A stretch of DNA of 64,000 bases, from positions 4,099,092-4,163,091 of the forward strand of contig NZ_SIRP01000001.1 in assembly GCF_011634835.1 (NCBI RefSeq). The letters run 5' to 3'. Of the stretch, positions 1,965 to 22,323 are shown piece after piece. The notes below the pieces were generated by a model. That model saw only the letters and a program-made list of their open reading frames with translations. It searched no databases and was not told the DNA's origin. The translations under genes were made by a program, and so were the position numbers. The DNA comes from Isoptericola sp. BMS4. Lineage in GTDB: Bacteria; Actinomycetota; Actinomycetes; Actinomycetales; Cellulomonadaceae. Each line of letters begins with the position of its first letter. Within the stretch, counting starts at the first letter, position 1.

Positions 1965-2597
1965 ATGGCGTGGGACACGGAGGGGACGCGGCGGAGACTT
2001 CGCGAGGCCGCGCTGGTGGAGTTCGCCGCACGGGGCTTCGACGGCACCACCGTCGCCGCGATCGCCGCCCGGGCCGGGGTGAACAAGGAGAGGCTCTACA
2101 GCTACTTCGGGGACAAGAAGGCCCTGTGGGACCTCGTCCTGTCCACCGAGCTGGAGCGACTCGCGGCCGCCGTCGATCTCGCGGGCGTCGGCCTGGACGA
2201 CGTCGGGGAGTTCGCCGGGACGACCTACGACTACCACGCCGCCCACCCCGAGCTGAGCCGCCTGCTGCAGTGGGAGGGCCTGCAGGGTGGCCCGACCGCC
2301 CGTGCGACAGCCCGCACGACGCACTACCGCGAGAAGGTGGCGCGGTTCGCCGCCGCCCAGCGCGACGGCGTCCTCGACGACGGCATCAGCCCCGCGCACC
2401 TCGTCTTCGTGCTCATCGCCCTCGCCGCCTGGTGGCAGACCGTGCCGCAGCTCGCCGAGATGATCACCGACGCCGGACCGGACGACCGGCGGGAGCGCGC
2501 GGCGCGCCGGCGATCCGTCGTCGAGGCGGCGAAGCGGCTCGCGTCACCCGTCGCCCGCCCCGGCGGTCAGGCGCCCCAGTCCCGCACGACGTCGTAA
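1965..2597 (+). CDS. TetR/AcrR family transcriptional regulator
   Basis: N-terminal helix-turn-helix LREAALVEFAARGFDGTTVAAIAARAGVNKERLYSYFGDKKALW. Its divergent arrangement with the SDR gene is a classic pair. Confidence 0.85.
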   Translation: MAWDTEGTRRRLREAALVEFAARGFDGTTVAAIAARAGVNKERLYSYFGDKKALWDLVLSTELERLAAAVDLAGVGLDDVGEFAGTTYDYHAAHPELSRLLQWEGLQGGPTARATARTTHYREKVARFAAAQRDGVLDDGISPAHLVFVLIALAAWWQTVPQLAEMITDAGPDDRRERAARRRSVVEAAKRLASPVARPGGQAPQSRTTS

Positions 2598-3349
2598 CCC
2601 AGCTTGCAGATCAACGCGCCCACCACGACGACGAACACGACGCGCACGAACGCACTGCCCCGGGCGACCGCCATCCGGGCCCCGACGTACGCGCCGACGA
2701 GGTTGGCCGCGCCCATCGCGAGCCCGAGGCCCCAGATCACGGCGCCGTGCGGGACGAAGAACAGCAGCGCGCCCAGGTTCGTGGCGAAGTTGACGATCTT
2801 CGCGAGCGCCGACGCCGGCAGGAACGCGTACCCGAGCACGCTCACCAGGGCGATCACGAGGAAGGTGCCCGTGCCGGGCCCGAGGAGCCCGTCGTAGGCG
2901 CCGATGACCAGGCCGATCCCGGCGGCGGTCCACCGGTGCCGGTTGCCCTCCCAGCGCAGGTTCGTGTGCTCGCCCATCCTCGGCTTGAGCACGGTGTACG
3001 TGGCGACGGCGACCAGCACGACGAGGATGATCGGCGTGAACAGGTCCGCGGGGATCTGCGCGGCGAGCGCCGCTCCCCCGCACGCGCCGGCCAGCGCCGC
3101 GAGCGCCATCGGGCCCGCGGTCGTGAGGTCCGGCCCCACCCGCCGGTAGTAGGTGATCGCGCTGGTCGAGGTGCCCATGATGGACGCGACCTTGTTGGTG
3201 GCCAGCGCCTGCACCGGCGAGATGCCGGGGACGAGCAGCAGCGCGGGCAGCTGGACCAGCCCGCCGCCGCCGACCACGGCGTCGATCCAGCCGGCGGTCA
3301 GCCCGGCGAGCACCAGCAGGACGATGGTCAGGACGTCGAGATCGAGCAC
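2567..3349 (-). CDS. TauE/SafE (DUF81) family sulfite/anion exporter membrane protein
   Basis: Multi-pass hydrophobic 260-aa protein with the two-repeat TauE/SafE pattern (GGGGLVQLPALLL...; GPGTGTFLVIAL). Confidence 0.75.
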   Translation of the reverse strand: MLDLDVLTIVLLVLAGLTAGWIDAVVGGGGLVQLPALLLVPGISPVQALATNKVASIMGTSTSAITYYRRVGPDLTTAGPMALAALAGACGGAALAAQIPADLFTPIILVVLVAVATYTVLKPRMGEHTNLRWEGNRHRWTAAGIGLVIGAYDGLLGPGTGTFLVIALVSVLGYAFLPASALAKIVNFATNLGALLFFVPHGAVIWGLGLAMGAANLVGAYVGARMAVARGSAFVRVVFVVVVGALICKLGYDVVRDWGA

Positions 3350-3379: not shown

Positions 3380-3949
3380 TCAGGAGTGCAGCGCGTCGTA
3401 CTCCGCCTCGGCGGCGACGTCGTCCGCGACGTCGAGCCGCAGGTGTGCGAGGACGCCCTGCAGCACGCGCAGGGCGGACGCCGCCCGCTCGCCCCACACC
3501 GACAGGTAGCTGAACTGCCACCACCAGAGGCCCTCGAGCTCGTGGCCGTCGTCGTAGTGCTGCAGCCCCTTGGCGATCTCCTCGGCGACGCACGCGAGGT
3601 CGCCGGAGAGGGTCGCGGGCGCGACGTCGGCGCTGAGAGCCGGGTCGGACACCTCGACGTAGTCGTCGAAGCCGTCGAACATCTTCGCGAGCGCGTCGCG
3701 CAGCGGGTCGACGTCGGTCTCGGGCCCGGCGTCGGGCTCGAACCGCTCGGCCGGCACGACGTCGACGATGGCGGCCAGCCGCGCGCCCACGGCGAGCAGG
3801 TCGGACGTGGCGAGGATCAGCAGGGACAGCTCGGCGCCCGGAGCCGCGCCGGAGGCGACCTGCGTCGTCGTCGACAGGAAGGTGCGCGCCTGTGCCGACA
3901 TCTGCTCTGCCACGTCGCGGAACTCCGAGCCCGGCTCGATCTCCCCCAC
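3380..3949 (-). CDS. DUF5063 domain protein (conserved actinobacterial protein commonly found next to recR)
   Basis: 189-aa acidic protein with WWWQFSYLSVWGERA. The assignment rests on position downstream of recR and family resemblance. Confidence 0.55.
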   Translation of the reverse strand: MGEIEPGSEFRDVAEQMSAQARTFLSTTTQVASGAAPGAELSLLILATSDLLAVGARLAAIVDVVPAERFEPDAGPETDVDPLRDALAKMFDGFDDYVEVSDPALSADVAPATLSGDLACVAEEIAKGLQHYDDGHELEGLWWWQFSYLSVWGERAASALRVLQGVLAHLRLDVADDVAAEAEYDALHS

Positions 3950-4021: not shown

Positions 4022-4621
4022 TCAGCCGCCGACGACCCGCCGACCCTCGAACGCACGGCCGAGCGTGACCTCGTCCGCGTACTCCAAGTCTCCCCCGACG
4101 GGCAGGCCCGACGCGAGGCGGGAGACGGTCACGCCCATCGGGGCGATGAGGCGCGACAGGTAGGTGGCGGTGGCCTCGCCCTCGACGTTCGGGTCGGTGG
4201 CGATGATGACCTCGGTGACGGCGCCGTCGGCCAGGCGGGACATGAGCTGGCTGATGCGCAGGTCGTCGGGGCCGACGTTCTCGATCGGGTTGATGGCCCC
4301 GCCGAGCACGTGGTAGCGGCCGCGGAACTCGCGCGTGCGCTCGATCGCGACGACGTCCTTGGGCTCCTCGACCACGCAGAGGACCTCGTCGCTGCGGCGC
4401 GGGTCGGCGCACACGCGGCAGGTGGCCGACTCGGCGACGTTCCCGCACGTCTCGCAGAACTGCACGCGCGCCTTGACCTCGGTGAGCGCGTCGGCCAGAC
4501 GCCGCACGTCGGCGGCGTCGGCCGCGAGCAGGTGGAACGCGATCCGCTGCGCGCTCTTGGGCCCGACGCCGGGAAGACGGCCGAGCTCGTCGATCAGGTC
4601 CTGGACTGCGCCCTCGTACAC
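4022..4621 (-). CDS. recR: Recombination protein RecR
   Basis: [32 protein letters not shown] (helix-hairpin-helix), a C4 zinc finger CETCGNV...CRVC, and the Toprim domain. Confidence 0.95.
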
Positions 4622-4756
4622 AAGGGATCAGCCTACGTGCCGGCACCGACGCCCGACGCGCCCATGACATCCGTCACGGCCCCGCGGTGCGTCCCTCACG
4701 CGAACCGGTGATCGGCGGCACTACCTGCGGCGACGCCCGCTCGCCAGGCTGGAGCC

Positions 4757-5788
4757 ATGACACCAGAACCGACTGACAGGCCGTACGCCGGACCGGTCGT
4801 CTCCGTCCGGGAGGCGCGACGCCGCTACGGCGCGTTCGAGGCCGTGCGCGGCGTCGACCTCGAGGTGGGGCGCGGCGAGCTCGTCGCCCTGCTCGGCACG
4901 AACGGCGCCGGCAAGACGTCCCTGGTCGAGCTGGTCGAGGGCCTCGCCCCGGCCGACGGGGGCCAGGTCCGCGTGCTCGGCCGGGACCCCTACCGCGAGC
5001 GCCGCGCCGTCGTCCCGCACGTCGGGGTGATGCTGCAGAACGCGGGCTTCTCCGCCGACCTCACCGTGGCAGAGACGGCCCGCATGTGGGCGGGCACGCT
5101 GACCCGGCCGCGGCCGGCGGGCGAGGTGCTCGACGCCGTCGGGCTCTCGCACCGCGCCCAGGTGCGCGTCGTGAGCCTGTCGGGCGGCGAGCGACGCCGC
5201 CTCGACCTCGCCCTGGCGGTCCTGGGCCGGCCCGACCTGCTCGTCCTCGACGAGCCGACCACCGGCCTGGACCCGGAGAGCCGGCAGGCCACCTGGCGCC
5301 TGGTGCGCGGCCTCCTGGACGACGGCGTGACCGTGCTGCTGACCACCCACTACCTGGCGGAGGCGGAGGAGCTCGCCGACCGGATCGCCATCATGGACGC
5401 GGGCCGGGTGGTGCGCTCCGGCACGGTCGCGGACGTCGTCGCTGCCGAGCCCGCGCGGATCGAGTTCGTGCCCCACGACGCGGGCGGCGCACCGCTCGTG
5501 CTCACCCCGGACGACCTGCCGGTGCTGGCGGGCGTCCCGAGCACGGGACATGCCCCGGACCGCGGTCCGACGGCGGAGCGCGGCCGGGTCCGGCTGCGCA
5601 CCGAGCGCCTGCAGGAGGACCTGACCACGGTGCTGCTCTGGGCGCGCGAACGTGGGCTGCGACTGCACGAGCTGGAGGCCCGCCCGGCGTCGCTGGAGCA
5701 GGCGTTCCTGGCGCTCGCCGAGGCCGGCGGTGCGCCGGACCACCAGACCGGTCGGACCACGCACGTCACCGAAGGGACGGCAGCATGA
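4757..5788 (+). CDS. ABC transporter ATP-binding protein
   Basis: Walker A GTNGAGKTS, ABC signature LSGGERRRL, Walker B LLVLDEP, plus a C-terminal extension. The start overlaps the downstream permease gene by ATGA. Confidence 0.85.
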   Translation: MTPEPTDRPYAGPVVSVREARRRYGAFEAVRGVDLEVGRGELVALLGTNGAGKTSLVELVEGLAPADGGQVRVLGRDPYRERRAVVPHVGVMLQNAGFSADLTVAETARMWAGTLTRPRPAGEVLDAVGLSHRAQVRVVSLSGGERRRLDLALAVLGRPDLLVLDEPTTGLDPESRQATWRLVRGLLDDGVTVLLTTHYLAEAEELADRIAIMDAGRVVRSGTVADVVAAEPARIEFVPHDAGGAPLVLTPDDLPVLAGVPSTGHAPDRGPTAERGRVRLRTERLQEDLTTVLLWARERGLRLHELEARPASLEQAFLALAEAGGAPDHQTGRTTHVTEGTAA

Positions 5789-6618
5789 GCACCTCCACCA
5801 CCACCCCCGCGCGCCGCTCCCCCGCCGTCGCGGGCGGACGCCGCATCGCCGCACTCGCCCGCGCCGAGACGACCCTGCTGGTGCGCAACCGCACGGCGCT
5901 CATGAACGCGATCCTCCTGCCGCTGGCGTTCGTCGGGGCGTTCGCCATGGTCGCCGACCCGGGCGGCGCGGGCGCCGACGAGGCCACCACCGCCACGGCC
6001 GTCCTGGCCATGCTCGTGGTGATGGGGCTGCTGTTCGTCGTGTACTACAACCTCACCACCGCGTACGTCGCCCGGCGGGAGGACCGGGTGCTGCAGCGGC
6101 TGCTCACCGGGGAGTGCACGCGTGGCGAGATCCTGCTCGCCCCCGCCGTCCCCGCGGCCGCTGTCGTCGTCGCGCAGGTCCTCGTCGGCCTCGCGGCCGT
6201 GACCGCGCTCCTCGACCCGCCGGGGCTGGTCAACCCGCTGCTGGTGGTCGTGGGCCTGCTGGGCGGCCTCGCCGTGATCGGCCTGTTCGCCGTCGCGACG
6301 TCGGGCCTGTCGCGGACGGTCGAGTCGGTGCAGCTCACCACCCTGCCCCTGGTGGTCGTGATGCTCCCGTTCGCGGGCATGTTCACGGCGCCGGGGGCGA
6401 ACGACGGCGTCTTCGGCCAGATCGCGCGGTTCACGCCGCTGCGCCCCGTCGTCGAGCTGTGCTGGCTCGGTCTCGCGGGCACCGACGCGAGCGGCCGCAC
6501 GCTGACCCTCGCCGAGACGTTCCCCGCCGCCGCGGTGCCGGTGGCCGTGCTCGCCGCGTGGGCCGTCGTCGGCGTCCTCGCCGCCCGGCGGTGGATGCGC
6601 TGGGAGCCGCGCCGGTGA
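5785..6618 (+). CDS. ABC-2 family transporter permease
   Basis: Six hydrophobic segments, translationally coupled to the ATPase. The start is the ATG in frame with tool ORF 5086..6618. Confidence 0.7.
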   Translation: MSTSTTTPARRSPAVAGGRRIAALARAETTLLVRNRTALMNAILLPLAFVGAFAMVADPGGAGADEATTATAVLAMLVVMGLLFVVYYNLTTAYVARREDRVLQRLLTGECTRGEILLAPAVPAAAVVVAQVLVGLAAVTALLDPPGLVNPLLVVVGLLGGLAVIGLFAVATSGLSRTVESVQLTTLPLVVVMLPFAGMFTAPGANDGVFGQIARFTPLRPVVELCWLGLAGTDASGRTLTLAETFPAAAVPVAVLAAWAVVGVLAARRWMRWEPRR

Positions 6619-6643
6619 CGCCCAGACGTGGCAGGGTGGCGCC

Positions 6644-7888
6644 GTGACGACACCGACCCCGACGTCGAGCGTCGCCGTCGGCGTGCGCCGTCTCGACGCC
6701 TATACGCGGTCCAGCCTCTACCTCCTTCCGGTGTTCGAGCCGCTCGCGGCGCTGGTCCCGGTCACCAGCGCCCGCTCGTGGCCCGCCTCGGACGTGTGGC
6801 TCGTTGTGGCGGCGATGGCCGTCCTGGCCCATACCGGGTCGTGTCTCGCGGTCGTGCACCTCGGGATCGGCGGCTCGTTGCGTCGTTCGACGGCGACGCG
6901 CCGGGCCGCGGTCGCGCTCGGCGTGACGACAGCGGCCGTACTGGTCCTGGGGCTGACGATCCTGCCGCCGTACGACCCCGACAGCCCGGCCGACAGCCTC
7001 TTCGCGATCGACCCCAGGACGTTCTGGATCGCCTGGGCGGCCGCGTTCACCTTGGGCGCCCTCGCGTCACGGTTCACCGTCCGGTGGCTCGGTGCCGGGG
7101 TCGTCGTCACGGGCGCGCTGATCCTCGCGGTCCGGCTGCCGGCCGACCCGCCCCCGGTGGCGGGCTCCGTCGTCGTCGCGGTGCTGGCGTGCTGCGTCCC
7201 CGCGTTCTGGGCCGGGACGATGCGCCTGTCCGTATGGAGCCTGGAGGTGATCCGCGAGCTCGACGCCGCCCGCCAGGTGAGCGCCCGGCTCGCCGTCGCC
7301 GAGGAGCGGCTGCGCATCTCCCGGGACATGCACGACGTCGTGGGGCGCGCGCTGTCCGCGGTCGCCGTCAAGAGCGAGCTCGCGGCGGCCCTGGCGAGGC
7401 GGGGCGACCCGCGCGCCGCCGACGAGATGGACTCGGTCCGGGCGCTGGCCCAGGAGTCGCAGCGCGAGGTGCGGGGCGTCGTCGCCGGCTACCGCGCCGC
7501 CGACCTGGCGACCGAGCTGGCCGGCGCGCGCTCGGTGCTGCGCGCCGCGGGCATCAGGGCGCGCGTGGTGGGCGACGTACCGCCGCTGTCGGTCTCCCAG
7601 GCCGAGGCCCTCGCGTGGGTGGTGCGGGAGTCGGTGACCAACGTGGTGCGCCACTCGGAGGCGGGCGAGTGCGTGCTGCGCCTGGACGTCGAGGACGGCA
7701 CCGCCGTCCTGCGGGTGACGAACGACGGCGTCGGTGACGCCGTCGTCACGACCTCCGGCGGCAACGGCCTGGCCGGCCTGCGGGAGCGCCTCGCCGCCGT
7801 CGGCGGCACCCTGGACGTCGACCGGGCCGACGGCCGGTTCACGCTCACCGCCCGCCTGCCCGGGCCCGACAGGAGGGATGACGCATGA
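6644..7888 (+). CDS. Sensor histidine kinase (HisKA_3 / NarL-type) with a multi-TM N-terminal domain
   Basis: N-terminal membrane segments; H-box ISRDMHDVVGRALSAV; HATPase_c (VRESVTNVVRHS, GNGLAGLRERLAAVGG). Probable GTG start. Confidence 0.8.
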   Translation: MTTPTPTSSVAVGVRRLDAYTRSSLYLLPVFEPLAALVPVTSARSWPASDVWLVVAAMAVLAHTGSCLAVVHLGIGGSLRRSTATRRAAVALGVTTAAVLVLGLTILPPYDPDSPADSLFAIDPRTFWIAWAAAFTLGALASRFTVRWLGAGVVVTGALILAVRLPADPPPVAGSVVVAVLACCVPAFWAGTMRLSVWSLEVIRELDAARQVSARLAVAEERLRISRDMHDVVGRALSAVAVKSELAAALARRGDPRAADEMDSVRALAQESQREVRGVVAGYRAADLATELAGARSVLRAAGIRARVVGDVPPLSVSQAEALAWVVRESVTNVVRHSEAGECVLRLDVEDGTAVLRVTNDGVGDAVVTTSGGNGLAGLRERLAAVGGTLDVDRADGRFTLTARLPGPDRRDDA

Positions 7889-8490
7889 TCCGGCTGGTGC
7901 TCGCCGACGACGAGACCCTCATCCGCGACGCGGTCGCCGCACTGCTGGCGCTCGAGGACGACCTGGACGTCGTCGCGGTCGCGGGGGACGGCCCGGCGGC
8001 CGTCGACGCCGTCGTGCGCCACCGCCCGGACGTCGCCGTGCTCGACCTGCAGATGCCCGGGGCGGACGGGATCGCCGTCGCCGAGGAGGTGGGGCGGCGC
8101 GAGCCCGGGTGCCGGGTCGTCATCGTGACGGGCCACGGCCGTCCGGGGCACCTGAAGAAGGCCCTGTCCGCGGGGGTGCGCGGTTTCCTGCCCAAGACGG
8201 CGCCGGCGACCGTGCTGGCGGACGCCGTCCGCCAGGTCGCGGCCGGCGGGCGCTACGTCGACCCCGAGCTCGCCGCGGACGCCATCGCGGCCGGGGACTC
8301 CCCGCTGACGGCCCGCGAGGCCGACGTGCTGGAGCTCGCCGCCGACGGCGCCCCCGTGGACGAGATCGCCGAGCGCGCCGCGCTCGCCCCCGGCACGGTG
8401 CGCAACTACCTGTCGTCCGCCGTCGCGAAGCTCGGCGTGACGAACCGGCACGAGGCGGCGCGCGTGGCCCGCGGCCAGGGCTGGCTCTGA
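7885..8490 (+). CDS. Response regulator, LuxR/NarL family
   Basis: Receiver domain MIRLVLADDETLIRD...VAVLDLQMPG and a C-terminal LuxR helix-turn-helix LTAREADVLELAADG...VRNYLSSAVAKLGV. It overlaps the kinase stop. Confidence 0.9.
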   Translation: MIRLVLADDETLIRDAVAALLALEDDLDVVAVAGDGPAAVDAVVRHRPDVAVLDLQMPGADGIAVAEEVGRREPGCRVVIVTGHGRPGHLKKALSAGVRGFLPKTAPATVLADAVRQVAAGGRYVDPELAADAIAAGDSPLTAREADVLELAADGAPVDEIAERAALAPGTVRNYLSSAVAKLGVTNRHEAARVARGQGWL

Positions 8491-8557
8491 CCGTTCTCCA
8501 GGCACCCGGCTGAGTCCACCCACGACCGAGTTATCGTGAAATTCCTTCAACTTTTGA

Positions 8558-8586
8558 TTGACGTTCGTCAAAACCCTCCTTAGGCT
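8558..8586 (+). promoter_or_regulatory. Candidate sigma70-type promoter TTGACG-N17-TAGGCT, overlapping the palindrome TTGACGTTCGTCAA, upstream of the PA14 gene
   Basis: A locally AT-rich patch (8530-8590) in a roughly 73% GC genome. A perfect 6+2+6 inverted repeat overlaps the -35 hexamer. The RBS GAGGAGGA lies 7 nt before the ATG at 8625. Confidence 0.4.
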
Positions 8587-8624
8587 CACGTCACGTCGAG
8601 GACGACGCACTTCGAGGAGGAAGC

Positions 8625-11600
8625 ATGCAGCCACGACGGTCCCCCGCCCGGCGACGAGCAGCCGGGCTCACCACGACGGCCGTGCTCGGTGCACTGGCCG
8701 CGCTGGGCCCCCTCCCGGCGGCGGGTGCCACCGGGCTCCCCACCGCCACCGCCGAGGACCTTCCCCCACAGGAGCCCGGCGTCACGCTGCGGACGTACGA
8801 CCTGCGGCAGGGCATCGACAGCCTCTGCACGCTCAAGGACGGGCAGACACCGAACGTCGACAAGCTCATGCCCACCGTCGACTGGACGACGGCGGGCGAG
8901 TTCGGGCTCGAGGACAACTTCCTCACCCACGCCCTCGGCAACCTCCAGGTGCCCGCCGACGGCGAGTACACCTTCCGGCTCACCAGCGACGACGGCTCCC
9001 GGCTCTCGATCGACGACCAGGTGGTCGTCGACAACGACGGGCTGCACGGCGAGGAGTCGGTGGACGGCACCGTCACCCTCACCGCGGGGTACCACGAGCT
9101 CCTCGTCGAGTTCTTCGAGGCCGGCGGCGGCCAGGTGCTGCGCCTCGAGTGGCGGCCGCCGGGCGCCGACTCCTTCACCGTCGTGCCGAACGACGTGCTG
9201 AGCACCGAGGCCGGCGTCGTCCGTGTCACCGCCCCCGGCACCAAGTACTGCGAAGGCGCCGAGGACACCGCCGGCGACGGCCTCCCGCTCGACGCCGTGC
9301 ACCCGGCCTACGACCTCACCGACCTGCGGCCCGAGGGCTTCGAGCCGATGGTCTCGGGCATGGACTGGACCGCCGACGGCGACCTCGTCGTCGCGACGTC
9401 CGGGGACGTGAGCCCCGCCGGATGGGAGGACGACCCCCGGACCGGCGAGCTCTTCGTGCTCGACGAGGTCACGGGCGAGACCAGCGCCGACCAGGTCACC
9501 GCGACCCCCGTCGCCGACGGCCTGTTCAACCCCATGGGCGTGGACGTCGTCGGCGACTCGATCTTCGTCTCCGAGCGCGACGGCCTCACCGAGCTGACCG
9601 ACCCCGACGGCGACGGCTTCTACGACACGCGCGAGACCTTCGCCCGGTGGCCGTTCGGCGGCAACTTCCACGAGTTCGCGTTCGGCCTGCAGCACGACGA
9701 GGACTTCTTCTACGTCAACCTCTCCGTCGCCATCAACAACGGCGGCGCGACGACCGACCCGCAGCCGGCGGAGAACCGCGGCACCAGCATCAAGGTCGAC
9801 CGGGACACGGGCGAGGTCACGTACGTCGCCGGCGGGCTGCGCACCCCCAACGGGATGGCGTTCGGGCCCGAGGGCGACCTCTTCGTCACGGACAACCAGG
9901 GCGCCTGGCTGCCGGCCTCCAAGCTCGTGCACGTCAAGCAGGACCGGTTCTTCAACCACTACACCAACCCGGACGGGCCGTTCGACGACCAGCCCGTCAC
10001 CCAGCCCGTCCTGTGGATCCCGCAGAACGAGATCGGCAACTCGCCCAGCGAGCCCGTGCAGCTCACCGAAGGGCCGTTCGCGGGGCAGATGCTCTTCGGC
10101 GACGTCACCTACGGCGGCCTGCAGCGCGGCTTCCTGGAGAAGGTCGACGGGGAGTACCAGGGCGCCGTCTTCCGCCACACCGCCGGCCTGGAGGCCGGGG
10201 TCAACCGCACCACCATCGGGCCCGACGGCGCGATCTACGTGGGCGGCATCGGCGAGGCCGGCAACTGGAGCGAGCCGAACAAGCTGAAGTACGGCCTGCA
10301 GAAGCTCGCCCCGAACGGCGAGGAGTCGTTCGACATCCTCGAGGTGCGCGTCCGCGAGGGCGGCTTCGAGCTCGAGTACAGCCAGCCCCTGTCCGACGAG
10401 ACCGTGGCGAAGATCGCGGAGGACGCCGGGGCGGCCTACGACGTCGACCAGTGGCGGTACGTGCCCACCCAGCAGTACGGCGGGCCGAAGATCGACGAGG
10501 AGGTGCTGCACGTCGCGAGCGCCGCCGTGTCGGAGGACCACACGACCGTCACGCTCGACATCGACGGGCTCAAGCCCGGCCGCGTCGTGCACCTGCGCTC
10601 CCCGCGCCCGTTCAGGGACTCAGACGGCCGCGAGCTGTGGAACACCGAGGCCTGGTACACGCTCAACAGCCTGCCGGGCTACGTGGCACCCGCCGACCGC
10701 GGATACTACGAGGCCGAGGAGGCCGTGCTGCTCGGCTCCGCGGGCCTCGACAGCGAGCACAACGGGTACTCGGGCTCCGGGTTCGTCGACGGCATCCAGT
10801 CCGAGGGCGCCGGGGTCTCCTTCACGGTGACCGCCGACGAGGCCGGTAGCCAGCCCGTCAACCTGCGCTACGCCAACGGGCCGAACCCGTTCGAGGGCGA
10901 CAAGTCCGTGTCGGTCCGCGTCAACGGCACCGAGGTGGACCCGTGGGTGCTGCCCAGCACCGGGGACTGGAAGACGTGGGACTTCGTCACCCGCGACCTC
11001 GACCTGCGGGCCGGCGCCAACACGATCACGCTGCGGTTCGACGAGGGCGACGACGGCAACGTCAACTTCGACGTCCTGTCGCTCGGCGAGGACCCGGACC
11101 TGTGCACCGCCACGGAGCCGGACGCGGGCTACACCGCGCTGTTCGACGGCACGCTGGCCAGCTTCGGCGACTGGCGCCTCGCCGGCGCCGGGTCGTTCGG
11201 CCGCCAGGACGACTGCGTGCTGCGCAGCGACGGCGGTATGGGGCTGCTCTGGCACACCGACGGGCTGGAGGGCTCCTACAGCCTGAAGCTCGACTGGAAG
11301 CTCGTGAAGGACGACAACGGCGGCGTGTTCGTCGGCTTCCCCGACCCGGGGAACGACCCGTGGGTGGCCGTGAACGAGGGCTACGAGATCCAGGTCGACG
11401 CCTCCGACGAGGCCGACCGCACCACCGGGGCGATCTACACGTTCCAGGGCGCCGACCCGGACGCGATCGCCGAGGCGCTGAATCCGGTGCCCGAGTGGAA
11501 CTCCTACGACATCCGTGTCGTGGGCGACACCATCCGGGTCTTCCTCAACGGGGTGCTGGTCAACGACTTCACCAGCACCGACCCGGCGCGGGACCTGTCC

Positions 11601-11972
11601 CGCGGCTTCCTGGGCGTGCAGAACCACGGCGCGGGAGAGCGGATCTTCTACCGCGACATCCAGGTCGCGCCGATCGGGGACGTCGCTCCCACCCTGCGCG
11701 CGCAGCTCGCGCCGCCGAAGGTGAGGTCCGGGAAGGACACCAAGGTGATCACCTGGGTCACCGGCCCCGAGGAGGACGCCCCGGTCGCGACCGGCACCGT
11801 CCGCGTCACCCTCGGCGACGAGGTCGTCACGGGGCAGCTGGTCGACGGTCAGGCGAACGTCGACGTGCCGACGTCGGGCCTCGCACCCGGCGAGCACCCC
11901 GTGACCGTGGAGTACCTCGGTGACGGGCACTACGGCGAGGGGACGACGACGCAGGAGCTGACGGTGCGCTGA
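8625..11972 (+). CDS. Secreted multidomain protein: signal peptide, PA14, GSDH-like beta-propeller, CBM6/35-like, DUF1080 (3-keto-disaccharide hydrolase-like), Ig-like
   Basis: Signal peptide [24 protein letters not shown]; PA14 ([35 protein letters not shown]); propeller motifs ([23 protein letters not shown]); carbohydrate-binding-like ([23 protein letters not shown]...ITLRF); DUF1080-like ([15 protein letters not shown]...YEIQVDAS...TGAIYTF); C-terminal Ig-like. Confidence 0.75.
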   Translation: [1115 protein letters not shown]

Positions 11973-12001
11973 CGGGCACCGAGCGCGCCGTCGGACACAG
12001 G

Positions 12002-12037
12002 CAGGCCGGCTCCGCCCCCCAGGGCGGGGCCGGCCTG
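12002..12037. terminator. GC-rich hairpin between convergent genes (candidate bidirectional terminator)
   Basis: CAGGCCGGCTCCGCCCC-cca-GGGGCGGGGCCGGCCTG, about 17-bp arms, lying between the PA14 gene stop and the VOC gene stop. Confidence 0.4.
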
Positions 12038-12063
12038 AGTGTCGACCGGCCGTTCCCGCCCTG

Positions 12064-12140
12064 ATCAGCGCGGCAGTTCCGGATCCGGGCGGCAGTTCGA
12101 ACTGCCGCTCAGATACTGAGCTGCCGACGCGATCCGGGCC
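12064..12140. repeat. Intergenic repeat family B, copy 1 (contains the perfect palindrome GGCAGTTCGAACTGCC)
   Basis: About 80% identical over roughly 72 bp to 42596-42672. Both copies sit directly 3' of a plus-strand gene. Confidence 0.5.
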
Positions 12141-12168
12141 GAATCGGCCGCCCCACCCGCCGGTGGCG

Positions 12169-12573
12169 TCAGCCGGCGACGAGCTCGACCTCGAACCCGT
12201 CGCCGTCCTCCAGGTACCCCGCGTCGTGCTCGGGGCCGCCGGCGTTCGGGTAGCGGTCGGCGAAGAGCGGCCGCCAGCCGTGGGACGGCGCCGCGTCGAC
12301 GAGCGCGTCGAGCTGCGCGCGCGTGCCGGCGTGCAGCGCGACGTGGTTGAGGCCGGGACGGCGGCGGTCGTGCGTGCCGGCTCTCATCGCCGGGCTCTCC
12401 TCGACGACGACGTACGCCGTGCCGAGACGCCACGAGCGCCCGTGCTCCCAGGACTGGAACGGTGCGTAGCCGAGCTCACCGAGCAGCCAGCCCCACGACC
12501 GTTCCGCACGGGCGAGGTTCGGAACCCAGAGCTCGAGGTGGTGGACGGTGCCGCGCGGCGCCCCGCCCGTCAC
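12169..12573 (-). CDS. VOC / glyoxalase-bleomycin resistance family protein
   Basis: TVHHLELWVPNLARAERSWGWLLGELGY...LNHVALHAG...GYLEDGDGFEVELVA. Probable GTG start overlapping the upstream NUDIX stop (GTGA). Confidence 0.65.
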   Translation of the reverse strand: MTGGAPRGTVHHLELWVPNLARAERSWGWLLGELGYAPFQSWEHGRSWRLGTAYVVVEESPAMRAGTHDRRRPGLNHVALHAGTRAQLDALVDAAPSHGWRPLFADRYPNAGGPEHDAGYLEDGDGFEVELVAG

Positions 12574-13007
12574 GACGTGCCCGTACCGGCCCGTGCCGCC
12601 GTGCGGGAGAGCAGCTCGACGGACAGGGGCGCGATCGGGTGGGTGGTCACCGGGCGGGCGGGGTCCACCCAGACGTGCTCGGCGAGCTCGGCCCGGACGG
12701 TGGGCTCGAAACCGGCAGGCAGGTCGACGGCGTAGACGTGGGCGTCGACGACGTGGTCCGCCTCGTTGGCGGCGACCGCGGAGAACCGGCCCAGCGGACG
12801 GACCGCAGCGGGGTCGACGTCGAGAGCGATCTCCTCCGCGCACTCGCGCACGAGCGCGCCGACGGGGTCCTCGCCCGGCTCGATCTTGCCGCCCACCTGC
12901 ATGAAGGCGGTGGTGCCGTGCTTGCGGACGAGGAGCGCGCGCCCGTCGTCGCGGACGATCACCGCGGCGACGATGTGCAGCGTGGCGGGGGTCGTTCCGG
13001 TGGTCAT
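12570..13007 (-). CDS. NUDIX hydrolase
   Basis: Nudix box GGKIEPGEDPVGALVRECAEEIAL. Its ATG overlaps the dnaX stop (ATGA), implying co-transcription. Confidence 0.8.
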   Translation of the reverse strand: MTTGTTPATLHIVAAVIVRDDGRALLVRKHGTTAFMQVGGKIEPGEDPVGALVRECAEEIALDVDPAAVRPLGRFSAVAANEADHVVDAHVYAVDLPAGFEPTVRAELAEHVWVDPARPVTTHPIAPLSVELLSRTAARAGTGTS

Positions 13008-15586
13008 GGCTGCTCCGCCTGCTCGTCGATGATCGTGCCGCCGAGAACCTTCATCACGAGCGGGACGCCGACGAGGCCGGACGCCGTGATGTCGGGGTCG
13101 TCGTCGGAGGCCTCGTCGTAGTCCGCCGCGGGGGAGGCCGGTGCCGCCGCGGGCCTGGCCGCCGGTTCCTGCGTCCGGGCGCGGGATGCGGCGAGCGCCT
13201 GCTCGGCCGCCAGCCGGGCCGCCTGCGCCCCCGAGGGTGCCGCGGCGGGCGGACCCGGGTCGGGCGCGGGCTCCGGGGTGGGCTCCGCGACCGGGGCGGA
13301 CGACTCGTCCGGGGACCACGCCGCCGGCGACGACGCGACGGGGGACGACGGCGGGGCCGTGTCGGGCGCGGCGAGCGCGGCCGCCGCGTCCGGCCGGGCG
13401 GGTTCTGGTGCCGCCGCGGCCTCCGGCGGCACCGTGCGGACCGCGGCGGGGGGCGACCCCGCGAGCCATGCGGCATCCGCCTCGTCCGCCGCAGACCGTG
13501 CCGGGGCCACCCGCTCGGCGACCGCGACGCCCCCGCGCGGCACCTCGGCCGCGGACACCGTCGCGGCACCCTGCGCACCACCGCGCGGGTCGCGGCCCGT
13601 GACGCCGCTGCGTGGCTGTGCTTCTCCGGGCGGCGGGACGTCGGGCCACTCGGGTCGGTCGGGTTCCTCGGGAGCATCGTCACCCGGGTCGGGCCGGGCC
13701 GGAGCATCGTCAGCCTCCCGGGGGCTCGGGCCGGCGTCGAGCTCGACGATCTCGATCCGTACCGCGATGCCGAGCGCCTGGTAGACGGCGTCCGAGATGG
13801 TCTCCGGGCGCCCTTGACGCGCCAGCGCGACGACGGCCGGCGCGAACCCGAGGCGCAGCACGTCGCCCTCGAGGGTCAGCACCCGGGCGTTCTCGCCCAG
13901 GAACGTGGCGGCTCGCGGACTCGGGATCGCGGTGAGGACCTCGCGCCAGCGCCTCCGCACCACCTCGGAGGTGACGGCGCTCTCGGGAGCCGACGGCGCA
14001 GGATCGGGTGCGGTGGACGGCGCCTCGTCGACCGGCTCCGGTTCCGCCTGGTCGACCGGCTCGACCTCGACCGGCTCCGGTTCCGGCACGCGCTCCGGCT
14101 CACCGGACGGCGCTTCGTCGAACGGTTCGAGCTCGGGCGGCTCCTGATCGACCGGCGGCACCTCATCGGTCCGGTCCGCCTCGGCGGGTCCCGGTGCAGC
14201 AGGCGACGGTTCGACAGCCGGCTCCGGTGCTGCGGCCGGCTCCGGTTCTGCGGCCGGGCGCCGGCTCGCCTGCAGGGCGGCCCGGACGGCGGCGGCACCG
14301 CTCACCCCTACGGCCGCGCCCGTCGTCGCGGGTTCGGAGACGGTCCCCGCCGCCGGCTCCGGCGCCGAGGAACGGTCGTCGACGGACGCGGACGCGACGG
14401 GCGCACCACCCGCGGCGATGGCGCCGCGCTCCAGGCGGTCGATCCGCGCGGCGAGGCCCACCGTGCCGTCGTCGGCGCCCGGGAGCAGCAGGCGCGCGCA
14501 GAGCAGCTCGAGGTGCAGCCGCGGCGACGTGGCGCCGGTCATCTCCGTCAAGGCTGTGTTGACGAGGTCGGCGGCGCGCGAGAGCTCGGCCATCCCCAGC
14601 CGGGACGCCTGGGCGCGCATGCGCTCGAGCTGGTCCGGCGGCAGGCCTCGCAGCACCGCGTCGGCGGCGTCGCCGGACACCGCGATGACGATGAGGTCGC
14701 GCAGCCGTTCGAGCAGGTCCTCCACGAACCGCCGCGGCTCGTGGCCCGTGGCGACGATCTGGTCCACGACGCGGAAGATCGACGCGCCGTCGCGCGCGGC
14801 GAGCGCGTCCACGACGTCGTCGAGCAGCGTCGCGTGGGTGAAGCCCAGCAGGCCCACGGCCGTGTCGTACTCCACCGTGCCCTCGGTGGCCCCCGCGATG
14901 AGCTGGTCCAGCACCGACAGGGAGTCGCGCACGGAGCCGCCGCCCGCACGCGTGACCAGCGGCACCACGCCGCCACCCAGCCGGATGCCCTCGGCCTCGC
15001 AGAGCTGCTCCAGGTAGGGCCCGAGGACGTCCGGCGGCACGAGGCGGAACGGGTAGTGGTGGGTGCGCGAGCGGATGGTGCCGATGACCTTGTCCGGCTC
15101 GGTGGTCGCGAAGACGAACTTGATGTGCGGCGGGGGCTCCTCGACGATCTTGAGCAGCGCGTTGAACCCCTGCGGCGTCACCATGTGCGCCTCGTCGAGG
15201 ATGAAGATCTTGTACCGGTCGCGCGCCGGGGCGAACGTGGCCCGCTCCCGCAGGTCGCGCGCGTCGTCGACGCCGTTGTGGCTGGCCGCGTCGATCTCCA
15301 CGACGTCGAGCGACCCGGGGCCGCCGCGCGCCAGCTCGACGCACGAGGCGCACTCGCCGCACGGCACGGCGAGCGGGCTCTCGGGGGTGTTGCGCGCGCA
15401 GTTGAGGGTGCGCGCCAGGATGCGCGCCGACGTCGTCTTGCCGCAGCCGCGCGGGCCGGAGAACAGGTAGGCGTGATTGACGCGCCCGCTGCGCAGCGCC
15501 TGCATCAGCGGTGCGGTGACGTGCTCCTGGCCGATGACCTCGGCGAACGTCTCGGGCCGGTAGCGGCGGTACAGAGCGGTGGTCAC
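13004..15586 (-). CDS. dnaX: DNA polymerase III subunits gamma/tau
   Basis: MTTALYRRYRPETFAEVIGQEHV...AYLFSGPRGCGKTTSARILAR, a zinc module, and a long Pro/Ala/Glu-rich tau linker. Confidence 0.95.
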   Translation of the reverse strand: MTTALYRRYRPETFAEVIGQEHVTAPLMQALRSGRVNHAYLFSGPRGCGKTTSARILARTLNCARNTPESPLAVPCGECASCVELARGGPGSLDVVEIDAASHNGVDDARDLRERATFAPARDRYKIFILDEAHMVTPQGFNALLKIVEEPPPHIKFVFATTEPDKVIGTIRSRTHHYPFRLVPPDVLGPYLEQLCEAEGIRLGGGVVPLVTRAGGGSVRDSLSVLDQLIAGATEGTVEYDTAVGLLGFTHATLLDDVVDALAARDGASIFRVVDQIVATGHEPRRFVEDLLERLRDLIVIAVSGDAADAVLRGLPPDQLERMRAQASRLGMAELSRAADLVNTALTEMTGATSPRLHLELLCARLLLPGADDGTVGLAARIDRLERGAIAAGGAPVASASVDDRSSAPEPAAGTVSEPATTGAAVGVSGAAAVRAALQASRRPAAEPEPAAAPEPAVEPSPAAPGPAEADRTDEVPPVDQEPPELEPFDEAPSGEPERVPEPEPVEVEPVDQAEPEPVDEAPSTAPDPAPSAPESAVTSEVVRRRWREVLTAIPSPRAATFLGENARVLTLEGDVLRLGFAPAVVALARQGRPETISDAVYQALGIAVRIEIVELDAGPSPREADDAPARPDPGDDAPEEPDRPEWPDVPPPGEAQPRSGVTGRDPRGGAQGAATVSAAEVPRGGVAVAERVAPARSAADEADAAWLAGSPPAAVRTVPPEAAAAPEPARPDAAAALAAPDTAPPSSPVASSPAAWSPDESSAPVAEPTPEPAPDPGPPAAAPSGAQAARLAAEQALAASRARTQEPAARPAAAPASPAADYDEASDDDPDITASGLVGVPLVMKVLGGTIIDEQAEQP

Positions 15587-15646: not shown

Positions 15647-16519
15647 TCACATCCGTTCCTTGATCCCCGCGCGCAGCAGGTACCAGTTGACCGGGTAGCT
15701 CGTGGCGAAGCCGACCAGCATGGCGACCTGCATCGCCGCCCAGAACACCGGCGTGCTCACGGCCGCGCGGCCGCCGAGGACGGCGGGCAGCACGGCCAGC
15801 TGCACCGCCGCCATCGTGCCGTACATGCCGACCTGCCAGGCCGTGATCGACAGCGCGTCCGCCTTGACGGCCTCCCGCAGCCCGGCGCGGACGCCCAGCC
15901 CGCGCATGGGCGCGATCGCGAAGAACTGGAACGCGACGCCGATGGCGAACGCGGCCACGTAGTCGAGCACCCACGTGCCGAAGATCCGGTCGGCGAACAG
16001 CCAGTCGTACCCGCCCAGGACCAGCAGACCCGGCAGCGCGAGCACCGTCCACTCCACGACCAGGTCGCCGAGGGTGCACCCCGCGCCGCAGTGGTTCGTC
16101 CCGAGGAACACCGACACCGCCGTGGGACGGCGCGGCCGGTCGCCGCCGTCCGCGCCGCGCGGCGACGCTCTCCCCCACCGCAGGTACGCCGCGACCCACA
16201 GCACCGAGCCGAACAGGGCCGTCACCGGCCACACCACGTTCATGACCCCCATGGGCTGGGGCCGCCGCGCCACGTCCACCGCGAGCAGGACGGCGCACAC
16301 CACGCCCAGGGCGAGGGTGGCCGTGCTCACCGCGACGAGCGTGGTCGGCAGCTCGGCCGTGCTCAGCTCCGTGGCCCGGGCGGCCACGGCGGTGGCCGCG
16401 CCCGTCGTCGTACCGATACCGATCGTCGTCACCTCCTCGATGCCGTCGACCCACCGCGGCACGACGCCGCGGTGTCGGGTCGGCCCTCCCAGGGTGGGCG
16501 CGCCCCTCGACGCCTGCAC
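15647..16519 (-). CDS. DUF4396 family membrane protein (start uncertain, probably internal to the tool ORF)
   Basis: GTNHCGAGCTLGD motif plus several transmembrane segments. It is divergent from the TetR gene; alternative starts lie near 16462 or 16252. Confidence 0.6.
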   Translation of the reverse strand: MQASRGAPTLGGPTRHRGVVPRWVDGIEEVTTIGIGTTTGAATAVAARATELSTAELPTTLVAVSTATLALGVVCAVLLAVDVARRPQPMGVMNVVWPVTALFGSVLWVAAYLRWGRASPRGADGGDRPRRPTAVSVFLGTNHCGAGCTLGDLVVEWTVLALPGLLVLGGYDWLFADRIFGTWVLDYVAAFAIGVAFQFFAIAPMRGLGVRAGLREAVKADALSITAWQVGMYGTMAAVQLAVLPAVLGGRAAVSTPVFWAAMQVAMLVGFATSYPVNWYLLRAGIKERM

Positions 16520-18733: not shown

Positions 18734-19396
18734 TCAGCGGTGCAGCGCCTTGCGCGCCAGCCGGTTGCCCAGCCACTGCACCACCTGCACGATGACGACG
18801 ATCACCGCGACCGTCACCAGCACCACCATCCAGTTGTAGCGCTGGTAGCCGTACCGGATGGCGAAGTCACCGAGGCCGCCGGCGCCGATGATGCCGCCGA
18901 TCGCGGACATGTCGAGCACGGCGATGAACAGGAAGGTATACCCGAGGATCAGCGGCGCCAGAGCCTCGGGCACCAGCACGGTCGTGATGATGCGCCACGG
19001 CGAGGCGCCCATGGCGCGGGCGGCCTCGACCACGCCGGGGTCGATGCCGACGAGGTTCTGCTCCACGATGCGCGACGTGCCGAACGCCATCATCACCGAC
19101 AGCGGGAAGATGAACGCCTCGGTGCCGAGCGTCGTGCCCACCACCTGCAGCGTCACCGGCCCCATCAGGGTCACGAAGATGACGAACGGGATGGGCCGCA
19201 CGATGTTGACGATCGCGTTGAGGATGCCGAACACGACCCGGTTGGCCAGCAGGTTGCCCGGGCGCGTGCAGTACAGCAGGAGGCCGAGCGCCAGCCCGCT
19301 GAGCCCGCCGGCGACCATCGCGATCGCGACCATCTGCAGGGTCTCGCCGAGCGCGCCGACCAGCAGCGGCCACAGGGTGTCCCAGTCGCGGTTCAT
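18734..19396 (-). CDS. metI: Methionine ABC transporter permease
   Basis: MetI-type transmembrane domain. It sits immediately downstream of a MetN-like ATPase. Confidence 0.9.
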   Translation of the reverse strand: MNRDWDTLWPLLVGALGETLQMVAIAMVAGGLSGLALGLLLYCTRPGNLLANRVVFGILNAIVNIVRPIPFVIFVTLMGPVTLQVVGTTLGTEAFIFPLSVMMAFGTSRIVEQNLVGIDPGVVEAARAMGASPWRIITTVLVPEALAPLILGYTFLFIAVLDMSAIGGIIGAGGLGDFAIRYGYQRYNWMVVLVTVAVIVVIVQVVQWLGNRLARKALHR

Positions 19397-20595: not shown

Positions 20596-20682
20596 CTGGT
20601 TCGTCCTCTCGTCGCGCCGCCATCCCGCACAGCGCCGCGGCCGGGGTGCGCGGGCTCGCCCGCCCACCCCGGCCGCAGCGGC

Positions 20683-21588
20683 TCAGGAGGCGTCGCGGAT
20701 GTCGTCCTCGAGGCCGGTCAGGATCTCCTGGAGCTCCTGGGGCGAGTTGTCCTTAATGACGGCGGTGTCGCCGGAGGCCTCCTGCTCGGCAGCGACGACA
20801 TCGTCCGAGTGCGAGATCTCGACGAGCTTCTTCAGGTCCGGGTCGTCGGCGACCTCGGCGCGGGTCACCCACACGTTGATGTAGGGCTTGGCCGCGTCGG
20901 AGTCGGGGTCGTCCTGGAACAGCGCGTCGTCGGGGCTGAGCCCGGCGTCGTCGACGAAGTCGTTGTTCACCACCGACGCGTCGACCGACTGGAGCTGGAT
21001 CGGGGTCTGCTCCGCGGCCACCGGGGTCACGGTCACCTTCGAGCTCGGCAGCACGTCGGCCTCGGTCGAGACGGCGCTGCCGCCGTCCTCGAGCTCGACC
21101 AGGCCGGCGTCCTGGAGCACGAGGAGCGCCCGCGCGAGGTTGGTCGGGTCGTTCGGCACCGCGACCTCTCCGCCGTCGGGGATCTGCTCGAGCGAGTCGT
21201 GCTCGGTGGAGTAGAGGGCCAGCGGGTACACGGCGGTGGCGCCGATCGGCGTGAGGTCGTCGTCGGCGTCGACGTTGTAGCCCGCGAGAAACTGCAGGTG
21301 CTGGAACTGGTTGGCGTCGAGCTCGCCCTGCGACAGGGAGGGGTTGGCCTGGGTGTAGTCCTGCAGGTCGACGAGCTCGATCGTGAGGCCCCCGGCCTCG
21401 GCCTGCTCCTGGAAGACGGCCCACTTGTCGTCGGAGGCACCGACGACGCCGATGCGCAGGGTGCCGTCGCTCTCGGCCGAGCCGGAGCCACCGCAGGCGG
21501 TGAGGGCGAGCGTCGTGGCGGCGACGGCGGCGGTCACGGCGACCGCACGGGTGGTGCGGGCGGTCCGGGGGGTGGTGCTACGGGACAT
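20683..21588 (-). CDS. metQ: MetQ/NlpA family methionine-binding lipoprotein
   Basis: Lipobox LALTACGG and an NlpA-family solute-binding fold. It is the first gene of the metQNI operon. Confidence 0.85.
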   Translation of the reverse strand: MSRSTTPRTARTTRAVAVTAAVAATTLALTACGGSGSAESDGTLRIGVVGASDDKWAVFQEQAEAGGLTIELVDLQDYTQANPSLSQGELDANQFQHLQFLAGYNVDADDDLTPIGATAVYPLALYSTEHDSLEQIPDGGEVAVPNDPTNLARALLVLQDAGLVELEDGGSAVSTEADVLPSSKVTVTPVAAEQTPIQLQSVDASVVNNDFVDDAGLSPDDALFQDDPDSDAAKPYINVWVTRAEVADDPDLKKLVEISHSDDVVAAEQEASGDTAVIKDNSPQELQEILTGLEDDIRDAS

Positions 21589-22318: not shown

Positions 22319-22323
22319 CCGCA

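Follow-up and report, generated by a model that had tools for sequence, protein, structure and literature searches.

The genes between dnaX and recR in Isoptericola sp. BMS4 are probably an accessory block built up in layers and inherited vertically, rather than a recent insertion displacing ybaB

In the 64-kb stretch of DNA from Isoptericola sp. BMS4 analysed here (the window), dnaX and recR are co-directional but not adjacent; they lie 8.4 kb apart on the same strand, with five genes on the opposite strand between them. The recR gene (4022-4621, minus strand) starts with GTG and encodes a protein of 199 aa with the Pfam domains RecR_HhH, RecR_ZnF, Toprim_4 and RecR_C, which is 95% identical to the RecR of Isoptericola sp. 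NPDC056605. Next to it, on the plus strand, are the genes for a DrrA-like ABC transporter ATPase (4757-5788; ABC_tran), an ABC-2 type permease of 277 aa (5785-6618; ABC2_membrane, ABC2_membrane_3), a HisKA_3 sensor kinase (6644-7888; HisKA_3, HATPase_c), a NarL/LuxR-type response regulator (7885-8490; Response_reg, GerE) and a multidomain PA14 protein of 1115 aa (8625-11972; PA14, DUF7133, CBM35/6, 3keto-disac_hyd, Big_3_5). Further on, the minus strand encodes a Glyoxalase_4 (VOC-fold) protein of 134 aa (12169-12573; PF13669, 52.9 bits), a NUDIX hydrolase of 145 aa (12570-13007; NUDIX, 55.3 bits) and DnaX, of 860 aa (13004-15586; DNA_pol3_delta2, DNA_pol3_gamma3, DNAX_ATPase_lid). The Pfam map places every gene from recR to dnaX in the order and location given by the first-pass annotation, except that the permease ends at 6618; the end at 6647 given earlier belongs to another frame. 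DUF5063 is found after recR, as in Streptomyces loci, and an SRP RNA and a tRNA-Ser are present upstream of dnaX.

As read from the sequence, the NUDIX gene shares an ATGA overlap with dnaX and a GTGA overlap with the glyoxalase gene. The dnaX-NUDIX pair is found in 9 Isoptericola loci, as well as in Xylanimonas and Promicromonospora, and a glyoxalase gene occupies the equivalent position in four other loci (L082, L089, L090 and L091). The NUDIX box taken from the translation, GKIEPGEDPVGALVRECAEEIAL, fits the consensus GX5EX7REUXEEXGU, with the last G replaced by A. Against the NCBIfam equivalogs MutT and NudG, the best scores were 38.6 and 28.6 bits, below the cut-offs of 156 and 97.9. The protein is probably a nucleotide-pool hydrolase that is co-expressed with the clamp loader. 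For specialists, the translational coupling of a NUDIX hydrolase to the clamp-loader gene dnaX across the Promicromonosporaceae is a point of interest.

The ABC transporter and two-component system (ABC/TCS) genes form a tightly coupled operon, with ATGA overlaps (ABC/permease and kinase/regulator) and one 25-nt gap. All of its Pfam domains (ABC_tran, ABC2_membrane, HisKA_3 and Response_reg-GerE) score above the gathering thresholds, and the ATPase reaches 212 bits against NCBIfam TIGR01188 (drrA), below the cut-off of 312. Hydropathy indicates about 6 hydrophobic segments in the permease, and a multi-pass membrane N-terminus with no large extracytoplasmic domain in the kinase. Upstream of the ABC gene (4664-4733, plus strand), an alignment of the corresponding regions of 8 Isoptericola gave a mean column identity of 81% with invariant blocks; the region contains an invariant block, GGCACTACCTGCG, and a palindrome of the TGACA-NN-TGTCA type, as a candidate autoregulatory site and promoter.

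The whole operon, along with this conserved upstream region, is inverted in BMS4 (4645-8493, now plus strand). In blastn comparisons with seven other loci (L082-L086, L090 and L002), positions 4663-8493 of the window run opposite in orientation to the flanks. With L090, the homology is inverted across 4663-8490, and the recR-side homology picks up again at 4644, just upstream of the TAGGCT hexamer of recR. Among the Isoptericola compared, only BMS4 and its sister strain SRR28519806 have the inverted operon and the PA14 gene; by parsimony, the inversion is derived in the BMS4 lineage. Across most of Isoptericola, 30-125 bp separate recR from a stress-type response regulator upstream of it. The nucleotide identity of the operon between species is 71-78%, as against 85-89% for the flanks, so faster evolution, or intragenus replacement by homologous recombination or HGT, is possible.

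The PA14 gene was earlier described as having its own promoter, and a promoter-like site, TTGACG-17 nt-TAGGCT, is indeed present at 8558-8586 (plus strand), where it would function as such; the palindrome TTGACGTTCGTCAA overlaps its -35 element. A Shine-Dalgarno sequence, GGAGGA, is read at 8616-8621 (plus strand). The N-terminus of the protein has RRR and a hydrophobic, signal-like segment, and a secreted, multidomain carbohydrate-binding protein is predicted. A homologue in I. halotolerans (85% identical in amino acids and 87% in nucleotides) is located on the other side of recR, and the two copies have a swapped C-terminal domain. The 87% nucleotide identity to this differently placed copy hints at an intragenus transfer of the gene in place of purely vertical inheritance. 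In BMS4, it takes the slot held in other Isoptericola species by a second NUDIX gene or a beta-lactamase-fold gene. Between the convergent PA14 and glyoxalase genes, two strong GC-rich hairpins (12000-12126, inverted repeat I1) were found by RNA folding; the segment 11965-12175 folds at -144.6 kcal/mol (z = -7.4 against shuffles). These are probable bidirectional terminators.

The canonical cluster is dnaX-ybaB(ebfC)-recR in E. coli and dnaX-yaaK-recR in B. subtilis. To our knowledge, YbaB/EbfC is a nucleoid protein that is otherwise near-universal. It has already been noted in a review that many bacteria lack the dnaX-ybaB-recR synteny (PMC9610160). The first-pass annotation saw no YbaB-like ORF in the window, and the searches bear this out. 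A YbaB HMM, made from 62 actinobacterial ORFs and run with filters off, recovered all 62 positive-control loci at E<1e-5 and had no match at E<=10 among the six-frame ORFs of at least 40 aa in the window. Pfam did not find PF02575 among the small high-GC3 ORFs of the window, tblastn of the window with two approximate YbaB queries gave a best E of 0.016, and no ybaB remnant was found in any frame. The expectation that ybaB should stand here, actinobacteria included, is right for many actinobacteria, as it lies directly upstream of recR in 62 of 81 recR loci (Streptomyces, Kribbella, Micromonospora and others); it fails for the Micrococcales. Among the 19 loci without it are those of all the named Micrococcales genomes, of Isoptericola, of two Nanopelagicales MAGs and of several unclassified Actinomycetota MAGs. 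The view of each genome spanned about 20 kb around recR or dnaX, and absence here refers to the locus. In Cellulosimicrobium (2 loci), Cellulomonas and Georgenia, only 10-98 bp separate the dnaX stop from the recR start, and none of these loci has ybaB; in seven MAGs, some of them with no label beyond Actinomycetota or Nanopelagicales, the gap is at most 194 bp. None of the Micrococcales sampled has ybaB at the dnaX-recR locus.

The start of recR has a signal of its own. A -10-like hexamer, TAGGCT (4630-4635, minus strand), stands 8 nt before the GTG as a putative promoter. In all 23 ybaB-less Micrococcales-type loci that were fetched, as in the window, this hexamer (rarely TAGGGT or TACGCT) ends 6-8 nt ahead of the recR start codon. 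None of the 62 ybaB-containing loci has it, and those of Streptomyces type among them mostly have a GGAAGG Shine-Dalgarno sequence before recR. BMS4 has both features of the Micrococcales-type locus, that is, no ybaB near recR and TAGGCT 6-8 nt before the start. The hexamer's TAG doubles as the stop codon of dnaX in Georgenia and in one MAG. Leaderless actinobacterial transcripts are known to have a -10 TANNNT about 6-7 nt before the start codon and no Shine-Dalgarno sequence; the spacing in BMS4 is 8 nt as against the canonical 6. Since the hexamer is conserved before the start and a Shine-Dalgarno sequence is lacking, the recR mRNA is probably leaderless, and recR in these loci may be a self-promoted, leaderless or near-leaderless gene. 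As its own transcription unit, recR could tolerate an insertion or rearrangement upstream without being silenced. The split between lineages with a Shine-Dalgarno sequence (Streptomyces type, ybaB present) and those with a -10 hexamer abutting the start (ybaB absent) is another point for specialists.

The genes of the accessory block are shared within the genus. In each of the eight Isoptericola relatives for which the surroundings of recR were viewed, the ABC-2/HisKA_3/LuxR operon is found upstream of this gene. I. variabilis, sp. 4D.3, F-RaC21, I. halotolerans, I. dokdonensis and NPDC056134 have the co-directional order dnaX>NUDIX>(glyoxalase or beta-lactamase)(<NUDIX2)>ABC>permease>HK>RR>recR; NPDC056605 has ABC>permease>HK>RR>recR, and in NPDC056578 a further sugar-utilisation cluster follows NUDIX2. 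BMS4 likewise has the dnaX-NUDIX coupling and the four-gene operon upstream of recR, and the genes of its block recur in L082-L086, L090 and L002; the orientation of the operon and the PA14 gene are all that sets it apart. The first-pass suggestion of a rearranged locus in this lineage thus agrees with an interval that is filled in every Isoptericola examined and variable across the Promicromonosporaceae. Other lineages have unrelated inserts of 1-3 kb at this junction, with MerR and MFS genes in Actinotalea. The insert of the Intrasporangiaceae holds a putative methyltransferase, a PlsC-like acyltransferase and a NiCoT-like transporter, all named by eye from translations, without a domain search.

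The alternative first raised, that ybaB was displaced or deleted when an accessory module entered a dnaX-ybaB-recR operon, draws on the frequency of ybaB upstream of recR in actinobacteria and on the roughly 8 kb of accessory genes at that junction in BMS4. Nevertheless, the insert-free relatives Cellulosimicrobium, Cellulomonas and Georgenia, with several MAGs, also lack ybaB; the gene was thus missing before the insert came, and independently of it, and no remnant was found in any frame of the window. As the locus lacks ybaB in all Micrococcales sampled, nothing was displaced in BMS4, and this account is extremely improbable. Just as hard to credit is an assembly artefact, or a ybaB too diverged or too short to be detected. 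The strong hairpin region at 12000-12126 does break short-read assemblies, and both Logan contigs of the sister strain terminate there; yet this independent assembly repeats PA14-RR-HK-permease-ABC-recR on one contig and dnaX-NUDIX-glyoxalase on another, while the HMM that was blank in the window recovered each of its positive controls.

That the 8-kb block, or the ABC/TCS and PA14 portions of it, is a horizontally acquired island at a recombination hotspot is unlikely, though less so than either of these. The content of the interval varies between genera and species, no orthologue of the ABC/TCS operon was found near recR in Cellulosimicrobium, Cellulomonas or Actinotalea, and the PA14 gene is differently placed in BMS4 and I. 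halotolerans despite its high identity, with the C-terminal domain exchanged. Against this, the codon-usage comparison proposed earlier revealed no compositional anomaly, as every inserted gene has a GC3 of 0.94-0.99 and RSCU distances inside the 5-95% range of the window. Pfam detected no integrase or transposase domains in the inserted genes, no significant repeats flank the interval, and the only tRNA, at 22234, is 9 kb beyond dnaX and does not adjoin the interval. The interval thus lacks the hallmarks of a mobile genomic island, namely an integrase or transposase, flanking direct repeats or a tRNA as target, and an atypical composition. Moreover, the operon is syntenic in 8 of 8 relatives, for which one old event, with vertical inheritance ever since, is the simplest explanation.

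It is therefore probable that the accessory genes between dnaX and recR in BMS4 accumulated in layers and were inherited vertically, and that they did not arrive in a recent insertion at the expense of ybaB. In the proposed history, the ancestral state of the Micrococcales would be dnaX followed directly by recR, with no ybaB at the locus. recR would form its own transcription unit, leaderless via TAGGCT, and upstream insertions would be tolerated. In the Promicromonosporaceae, except Cellulosimicrobium, a NUDIX gene would have gained translational coupling to dnaX; in part of Isoptericola, it is followed by a glyoxalase-fold gene. The self-contained four-gene operon would have arrived upstream of recR in the Isoptericola ancestor. 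Lastly, in the BMS4 lineage, the operon and its conserved control region would have been inverted, and the PA14/CBM35 gene, with its own putative promoter and terminators, would have come to occupy the NUDIX2/beta-lactamase slot. Comparative synteny shows the steps on ybaB absence, NUDIX coupling, operon arrival and inversion, while we infer the recR promoter step and all biochemical roles.

A more speculative extension, which we regard as possible but somewhat doubtful, is that the Micrococcales, and perhaps the Nanopelagicales, lost YbaB/EbfC altogether, while the Micrococcales recR concurrently became self-promoted and leaderless (TAGGCT, 6-8 nt, GTG). The dnaX-recR junction would thus be a permissive hotspot for insertion and rearrangement, with cargo differing by family. 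In most Isoptericola, the expression of recR might also be coupled to the upstream response-regulator system, a coupling that the inversion in BMS4 would have broken. The interval itself is ordinary genome plasticity; the apparent insertion is a genus-wide feature made of common gene families, and signals of a broken conserved operon need to be judged against the right clade.

Among known systems, the four-gene operon resembles AbrA1/A2. The AbrA operon of Streptomyces coelicolor (SCO1742-1745) also joins an ABC transporter with a two-component system and is positively autoregulated (PMC4193843). The order of ATPase, permease, kinase and regulator is identical, both are single operons with their own promoter (predicted in BMS4), and the ABC part is drug/peptide exporter-like (PMC4193843). 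By analogy, the BMS4 operon may be an autoregulated exporter/sensor unit; AbrA, however, is tied to antibiotic production and differentiation, for which Isoptericola is not known. With the canonical dnaX-ybaB-recR cluster, BMS4 shares the strand and the chromosomal neighbourhood of dnaX and recR, but it has no ybaB and the two genes are set 8.4 kb apart. In the ybaB-containing lineages of Streptomyces type, recR has a Shine-Dalgarno sequence, whereas that of BMS4 has the TAGGCT hexamer instead. The Micrococcales-type loci of Cellulosimicrobium, Cellulomonas and Georgenia differ from BMS4 and its genus in the adjacency of dnaX and recR, between which the NUDIX and glyoxalase-fold genes, the ABC/TCS operon and PA14 are interposed here; an additional TetR/ABC/DUF4396 block separates metI from dnaX in BMS4. 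Nevertheless, these loci share with BMS4 the absence of ybaB, the TAGGCT before recR and the flanks, where metNI precedes dnaX and DUF5063 and/or TauE follow recR.

The dnaX-recR locus of Isoptericola sp. BMS4, an organism placed in the Micrococcales, family Promicromonosporaceae, is, as judged from sequence comparison, a Micrococcales-type arrangement of dnaX and recR without ybaB, together with a genus-typical accessory block. DnaX of the window shows 100% identity to the BMS4 protein. The gene list of the first-pass annotation was borne out by GC3-guided gene calling and Pfam. TauE (2567-3349), DUF5063 (3380-3949) and recR (4022-4621) lie on the reverse strand. They are followed on the forward strand by an ABC ATPase (4757-5788), an ABC-2 permease (5785-6618), a HisKA_3 kinase (6644-7888), a Response_reg/GerE regulator (7885-8490) and a 1115-aa PA14/DUF7133/CBM35/3keto-disac_hyd/Big_3_5 protein (8625-11972), and then, again on the reverse strand, by Glyoxalase_4 (12169-12573), NUDIX (12570-13007) and dnaX (13004-15586). 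Direct reading of the sequence confirmed the ATGA overlap that had been claimed to couple NUDIX to dnaX; the same start/stop overlap was observed for ABC/permease and kinase/regulator, and the NUDIX/glyoxalase overlap is GTGA. For none of the inserted genes did NCBIfam provide an equivalog-level assignment. Elsewhere in the window, an FMN riboswitch is present at 41629-41759 on the forward strand (Rfam RF00050, 89 bits).

It had been stated that the window contains no YbaB-like ORF, and this is upheld by tblastn, HMM and Pfam. Two YbaB queries gave no significant tblastn match in the window; as a positive control, they match directly 5' of recR in dozens of actinobacterial loci. With filters switched off, an HMM built from 62 such actinobacterial ORFs gave zero matches even at E<=10 among all six-frame ORFs of at least 40 aa in the window. 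By Pfam, PF02575 was not found among the small coding-like ORFs of the window; the families seen there are VapB-like, PadR and Rrf2. In relatives, the small VapB-like (PF23719) protein (23384-23731, forward) is conserved beside LytR_C, close to the SRP RNA and tRNA-Ser. A 122-aa ORF (12065-12433, reverse) was considered as a hidden YbaB and rejected, as it is an Arg/Pro-rich, out-of-frame artefact with no Pfam match; the real gene at this place is the Glyoxalase_4 ORF, in a different frame.

Two explanations had been offered for this absence, namely a locus rearranged in the lineage, or an accessory insertion that displaced ybaB from a conserved operon. A RecR scan of a genome collection yielded 80 loci, 81 with the sister-strain contig, and ybaB is directly upstream of recR in 62 of them. 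The other 19 take in every named Micrococcales genome (Cellulosimicrobium with two loci, Cellulomonas, Actinotalea, Georgenia, Terrabacter, Oryzihumus, Intrasporangium, Knoellia and Isoptericola), along with several unclassified Actinomycetota MAGs and two Nanopelagicales MAGs. Only 10-98 bp separate the dnaX stop from recR in Cellulosimicrobium, Cellulomonas and Georgenia; in seven MAGs, some of which bear no label beyond Actinomycetota or Nanopelagicales, the distance is at most 194 bp. Unrelated inserts of 1-3 kb fill this junction in Actinotalea and the Intrasporangiaceae. As these relatives, insert-free loci included, have no ybaB between dnaX and recR, its absence there is order-typical and independent of the BMS4 insert. 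Displacement of ybaB by the insertion is thus unsupported, and a disrupted dnaX-ybaB-recR operon is rejected.

Nothing marks the block as a mobile island. The inserted genes have a GC3 of 0.94-0.99 and codon-usage distances inside the normal range of the window. The search for island-boundary repeats returned only weak, chance-level matches and no meaningful flanking repeats, no tRNA lies near the insert, and Pfam found no integrase or transposase domains in the inserted genes. The lineage-rearranged locus was the right explanation, as the same genes stand between dnaX and recR in Isoptericola relatives. According to a review of EbfC/YbaB, many bacteria lack dnaX-ybaB-recR synteny (PMC9610160). 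Literature searches on how YbaB is distributed among Actinobacteria or Micrococcales gave nothing for this order, and no paper on strain BMS4 turned up.

Through DnaX orthologue look-up, the dnaX-to-recR interval was followed in further Promicromonosporaceae, and on this comparison the insert is layered by lineage, at the family, genus and strain levels. All Isoptericola examined have NUDIX coupled to dnaX, as do Xylanimonas and Promicromonospora; Cellulosimicrobium does not. In six Isoptericola (I. variabilis, 4D.3, F-RaC21, I. halotolerans, I. dokdonensis and NPDC056134), dnaX, NUDIX, a glyoxalase or beta-lactamase-fold gene (and a reversed second NUDIX gene), ABC, permease, kinase, regulator and recR run co-directionally. 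The order from ABC to recR is identical in NPDC056605, and in NPDC056578 an additional ~8-kb sugar-utilisation cluster is inserted past the second NUDIX. The block is therefore genus-typical, but the four-gene operon takes the opposite orientation in BMS4 and a near-identical strain (Logan SRR28519806) only; in both, PA14 stands where other Isoptericola have the second NUDIX gene or the beta-lactamase gene. On the 3' side of recR, DUF5063 and TauE are found in five of the six co-directional Isoptericola, and the PA14 gene instead in I. halotolerans.

The gap between TauE and aspartokinase, just downstream of recR, is another small replacement hotspot, with a TetR regulator and a short-chain dehydrogenase in BMS4 (1031-2559), and MarR and a glyoxalase in the sister strain (L001 9997-10919). 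In many bacteria, the SRP RNA and tRNA-Ser are normally just upstream of dnaX. Here, the SRP RNA (21979-22075, reverse) and tRNA-Ser(GGA) (22234-22320, forward) are ~6.4 kb from dnaX, with DUF4396 (15647-16519), a TetR/ABC block (~16.5-18.7 kb) and the metQNI operon (18734-21756) in between. Since metI abuts dnaX in Cellulosimicrobium, dnaX has an insertion site on its upstream flank as well.

By blastn, the inverted segment extends from ~4645/4663 to 8493, and towards recR the homology with other species picks up again precisely at GTAGGCTG, 23 bp ahead of the start codon of recR. About 95 bp upstream of the ABC gene are conserved in eight Isoptericola species. This upstream region (4664-4733) contains a TGACA-NN-TGTCA-type palindrome and an invariant GGCACTACCTGCG block, which are candidate binding sites of the adjacent LuxR-type regulator. 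As this conserved stretch accompanied the operon, the inversion involved a whole transcription unit. With eight co-directional loci versus two inverted ones, parsimony would make the BMS4 orientation the derived one. Visual inspection showed no convincing inverted microhomology at the breakpoints. A scan for sigma-70 and terminator consensus sequences between recR and ABC returned nothing, its E. coli-type criteria being ill-suited to a 73% GC actinobacterium.

The PA14 gene had been credited with its own promoter, and a textbook candidate, TTGACG-17 nt-TAGGCT, is indeed read ahead of it at 8558-8586, with a palindrome overlapping the -35 and then a GGAGGA Shine-Dalgarno. Its homologue in I. 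halotolerans (L085 19387-22706 against window 8952-11683) is 85% identical in amino acids and 87% in nucleotides, the latter at least as high as in neighbouring housekeeping genes. That copy lies on the other side of recR, convergent to it, and ends in CBM_5_12 versus Big_3_5 in BMS4. The high identity, the different position and the swapped C-terminal domain suggest gene movement or recombination within the genus. Two very stable GC-rich hairpins (12000-12126, fold z = -7.4) separate the convergent PA14 and glyoxalase genes, and this is where the two short-read contigs from the sister strain break off.

At recR, the hexamer TAGGCT (rarely TAGGGT or TACGCT) ends 6-8 nt before the GTG/ATG in all 23 ybaB-less Micrococcales-type loci retrieved and in the window (4630-4635, reverse, by sequence comparison; spacing 8 nt), and none of these has a Shine-Dalgarno at recR. 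The hexamer is kept whatever adjoins it 5', be it dnaX, a response regulator, an MFS gene, an acyltransferase or, in BMS4, the divergent ABC promoter region; in Georgenia and one MAG, its TAG doubles as the dnaX stop codon. It precedes recR in 0 of 62 ybaB-containing loci, and those of Streptomyces type mostly have a GGAAGG-type Shine-Dalgarno. In the transcription start site maps of mycobacteria and streptomycetes, leaderless actinobacterial mRNAs have a layout in which a TANNNT hexamer stands 6 nt ahead of the start codon. We infer that recR is self-promoted and probably leaderless in ybaB-less Micrococcales-type lineages, which would make insertions upstream of it harmless. This candidate promoter dichotomy and the family-wide dnaX-NUDIX coupling are the only, mildly new, points of the locus.

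As for the functions, the Nudix box of the NUDIX protein is nearly intact, and the protein's similarity to NudG/MutT is sub-threshold. Its family and the conserved coupling to dnaX suggest a hydrolase of the nucleotide pool that would be expressed together with the replicase. From its family membership, the PA14 protein probably is secreted and binds or processes carbohydrates. The HisKA_3 kinase has a membrane-embedded sensor region, and the four-gene operon probably encodes an exporter together with a dedicated sensor and regulator. Its ABC-2/HisKA_3/NarL architecture matches that of the four-gene AbrA operon of S. coelicolor, which is autoregulated (PMC4193843).
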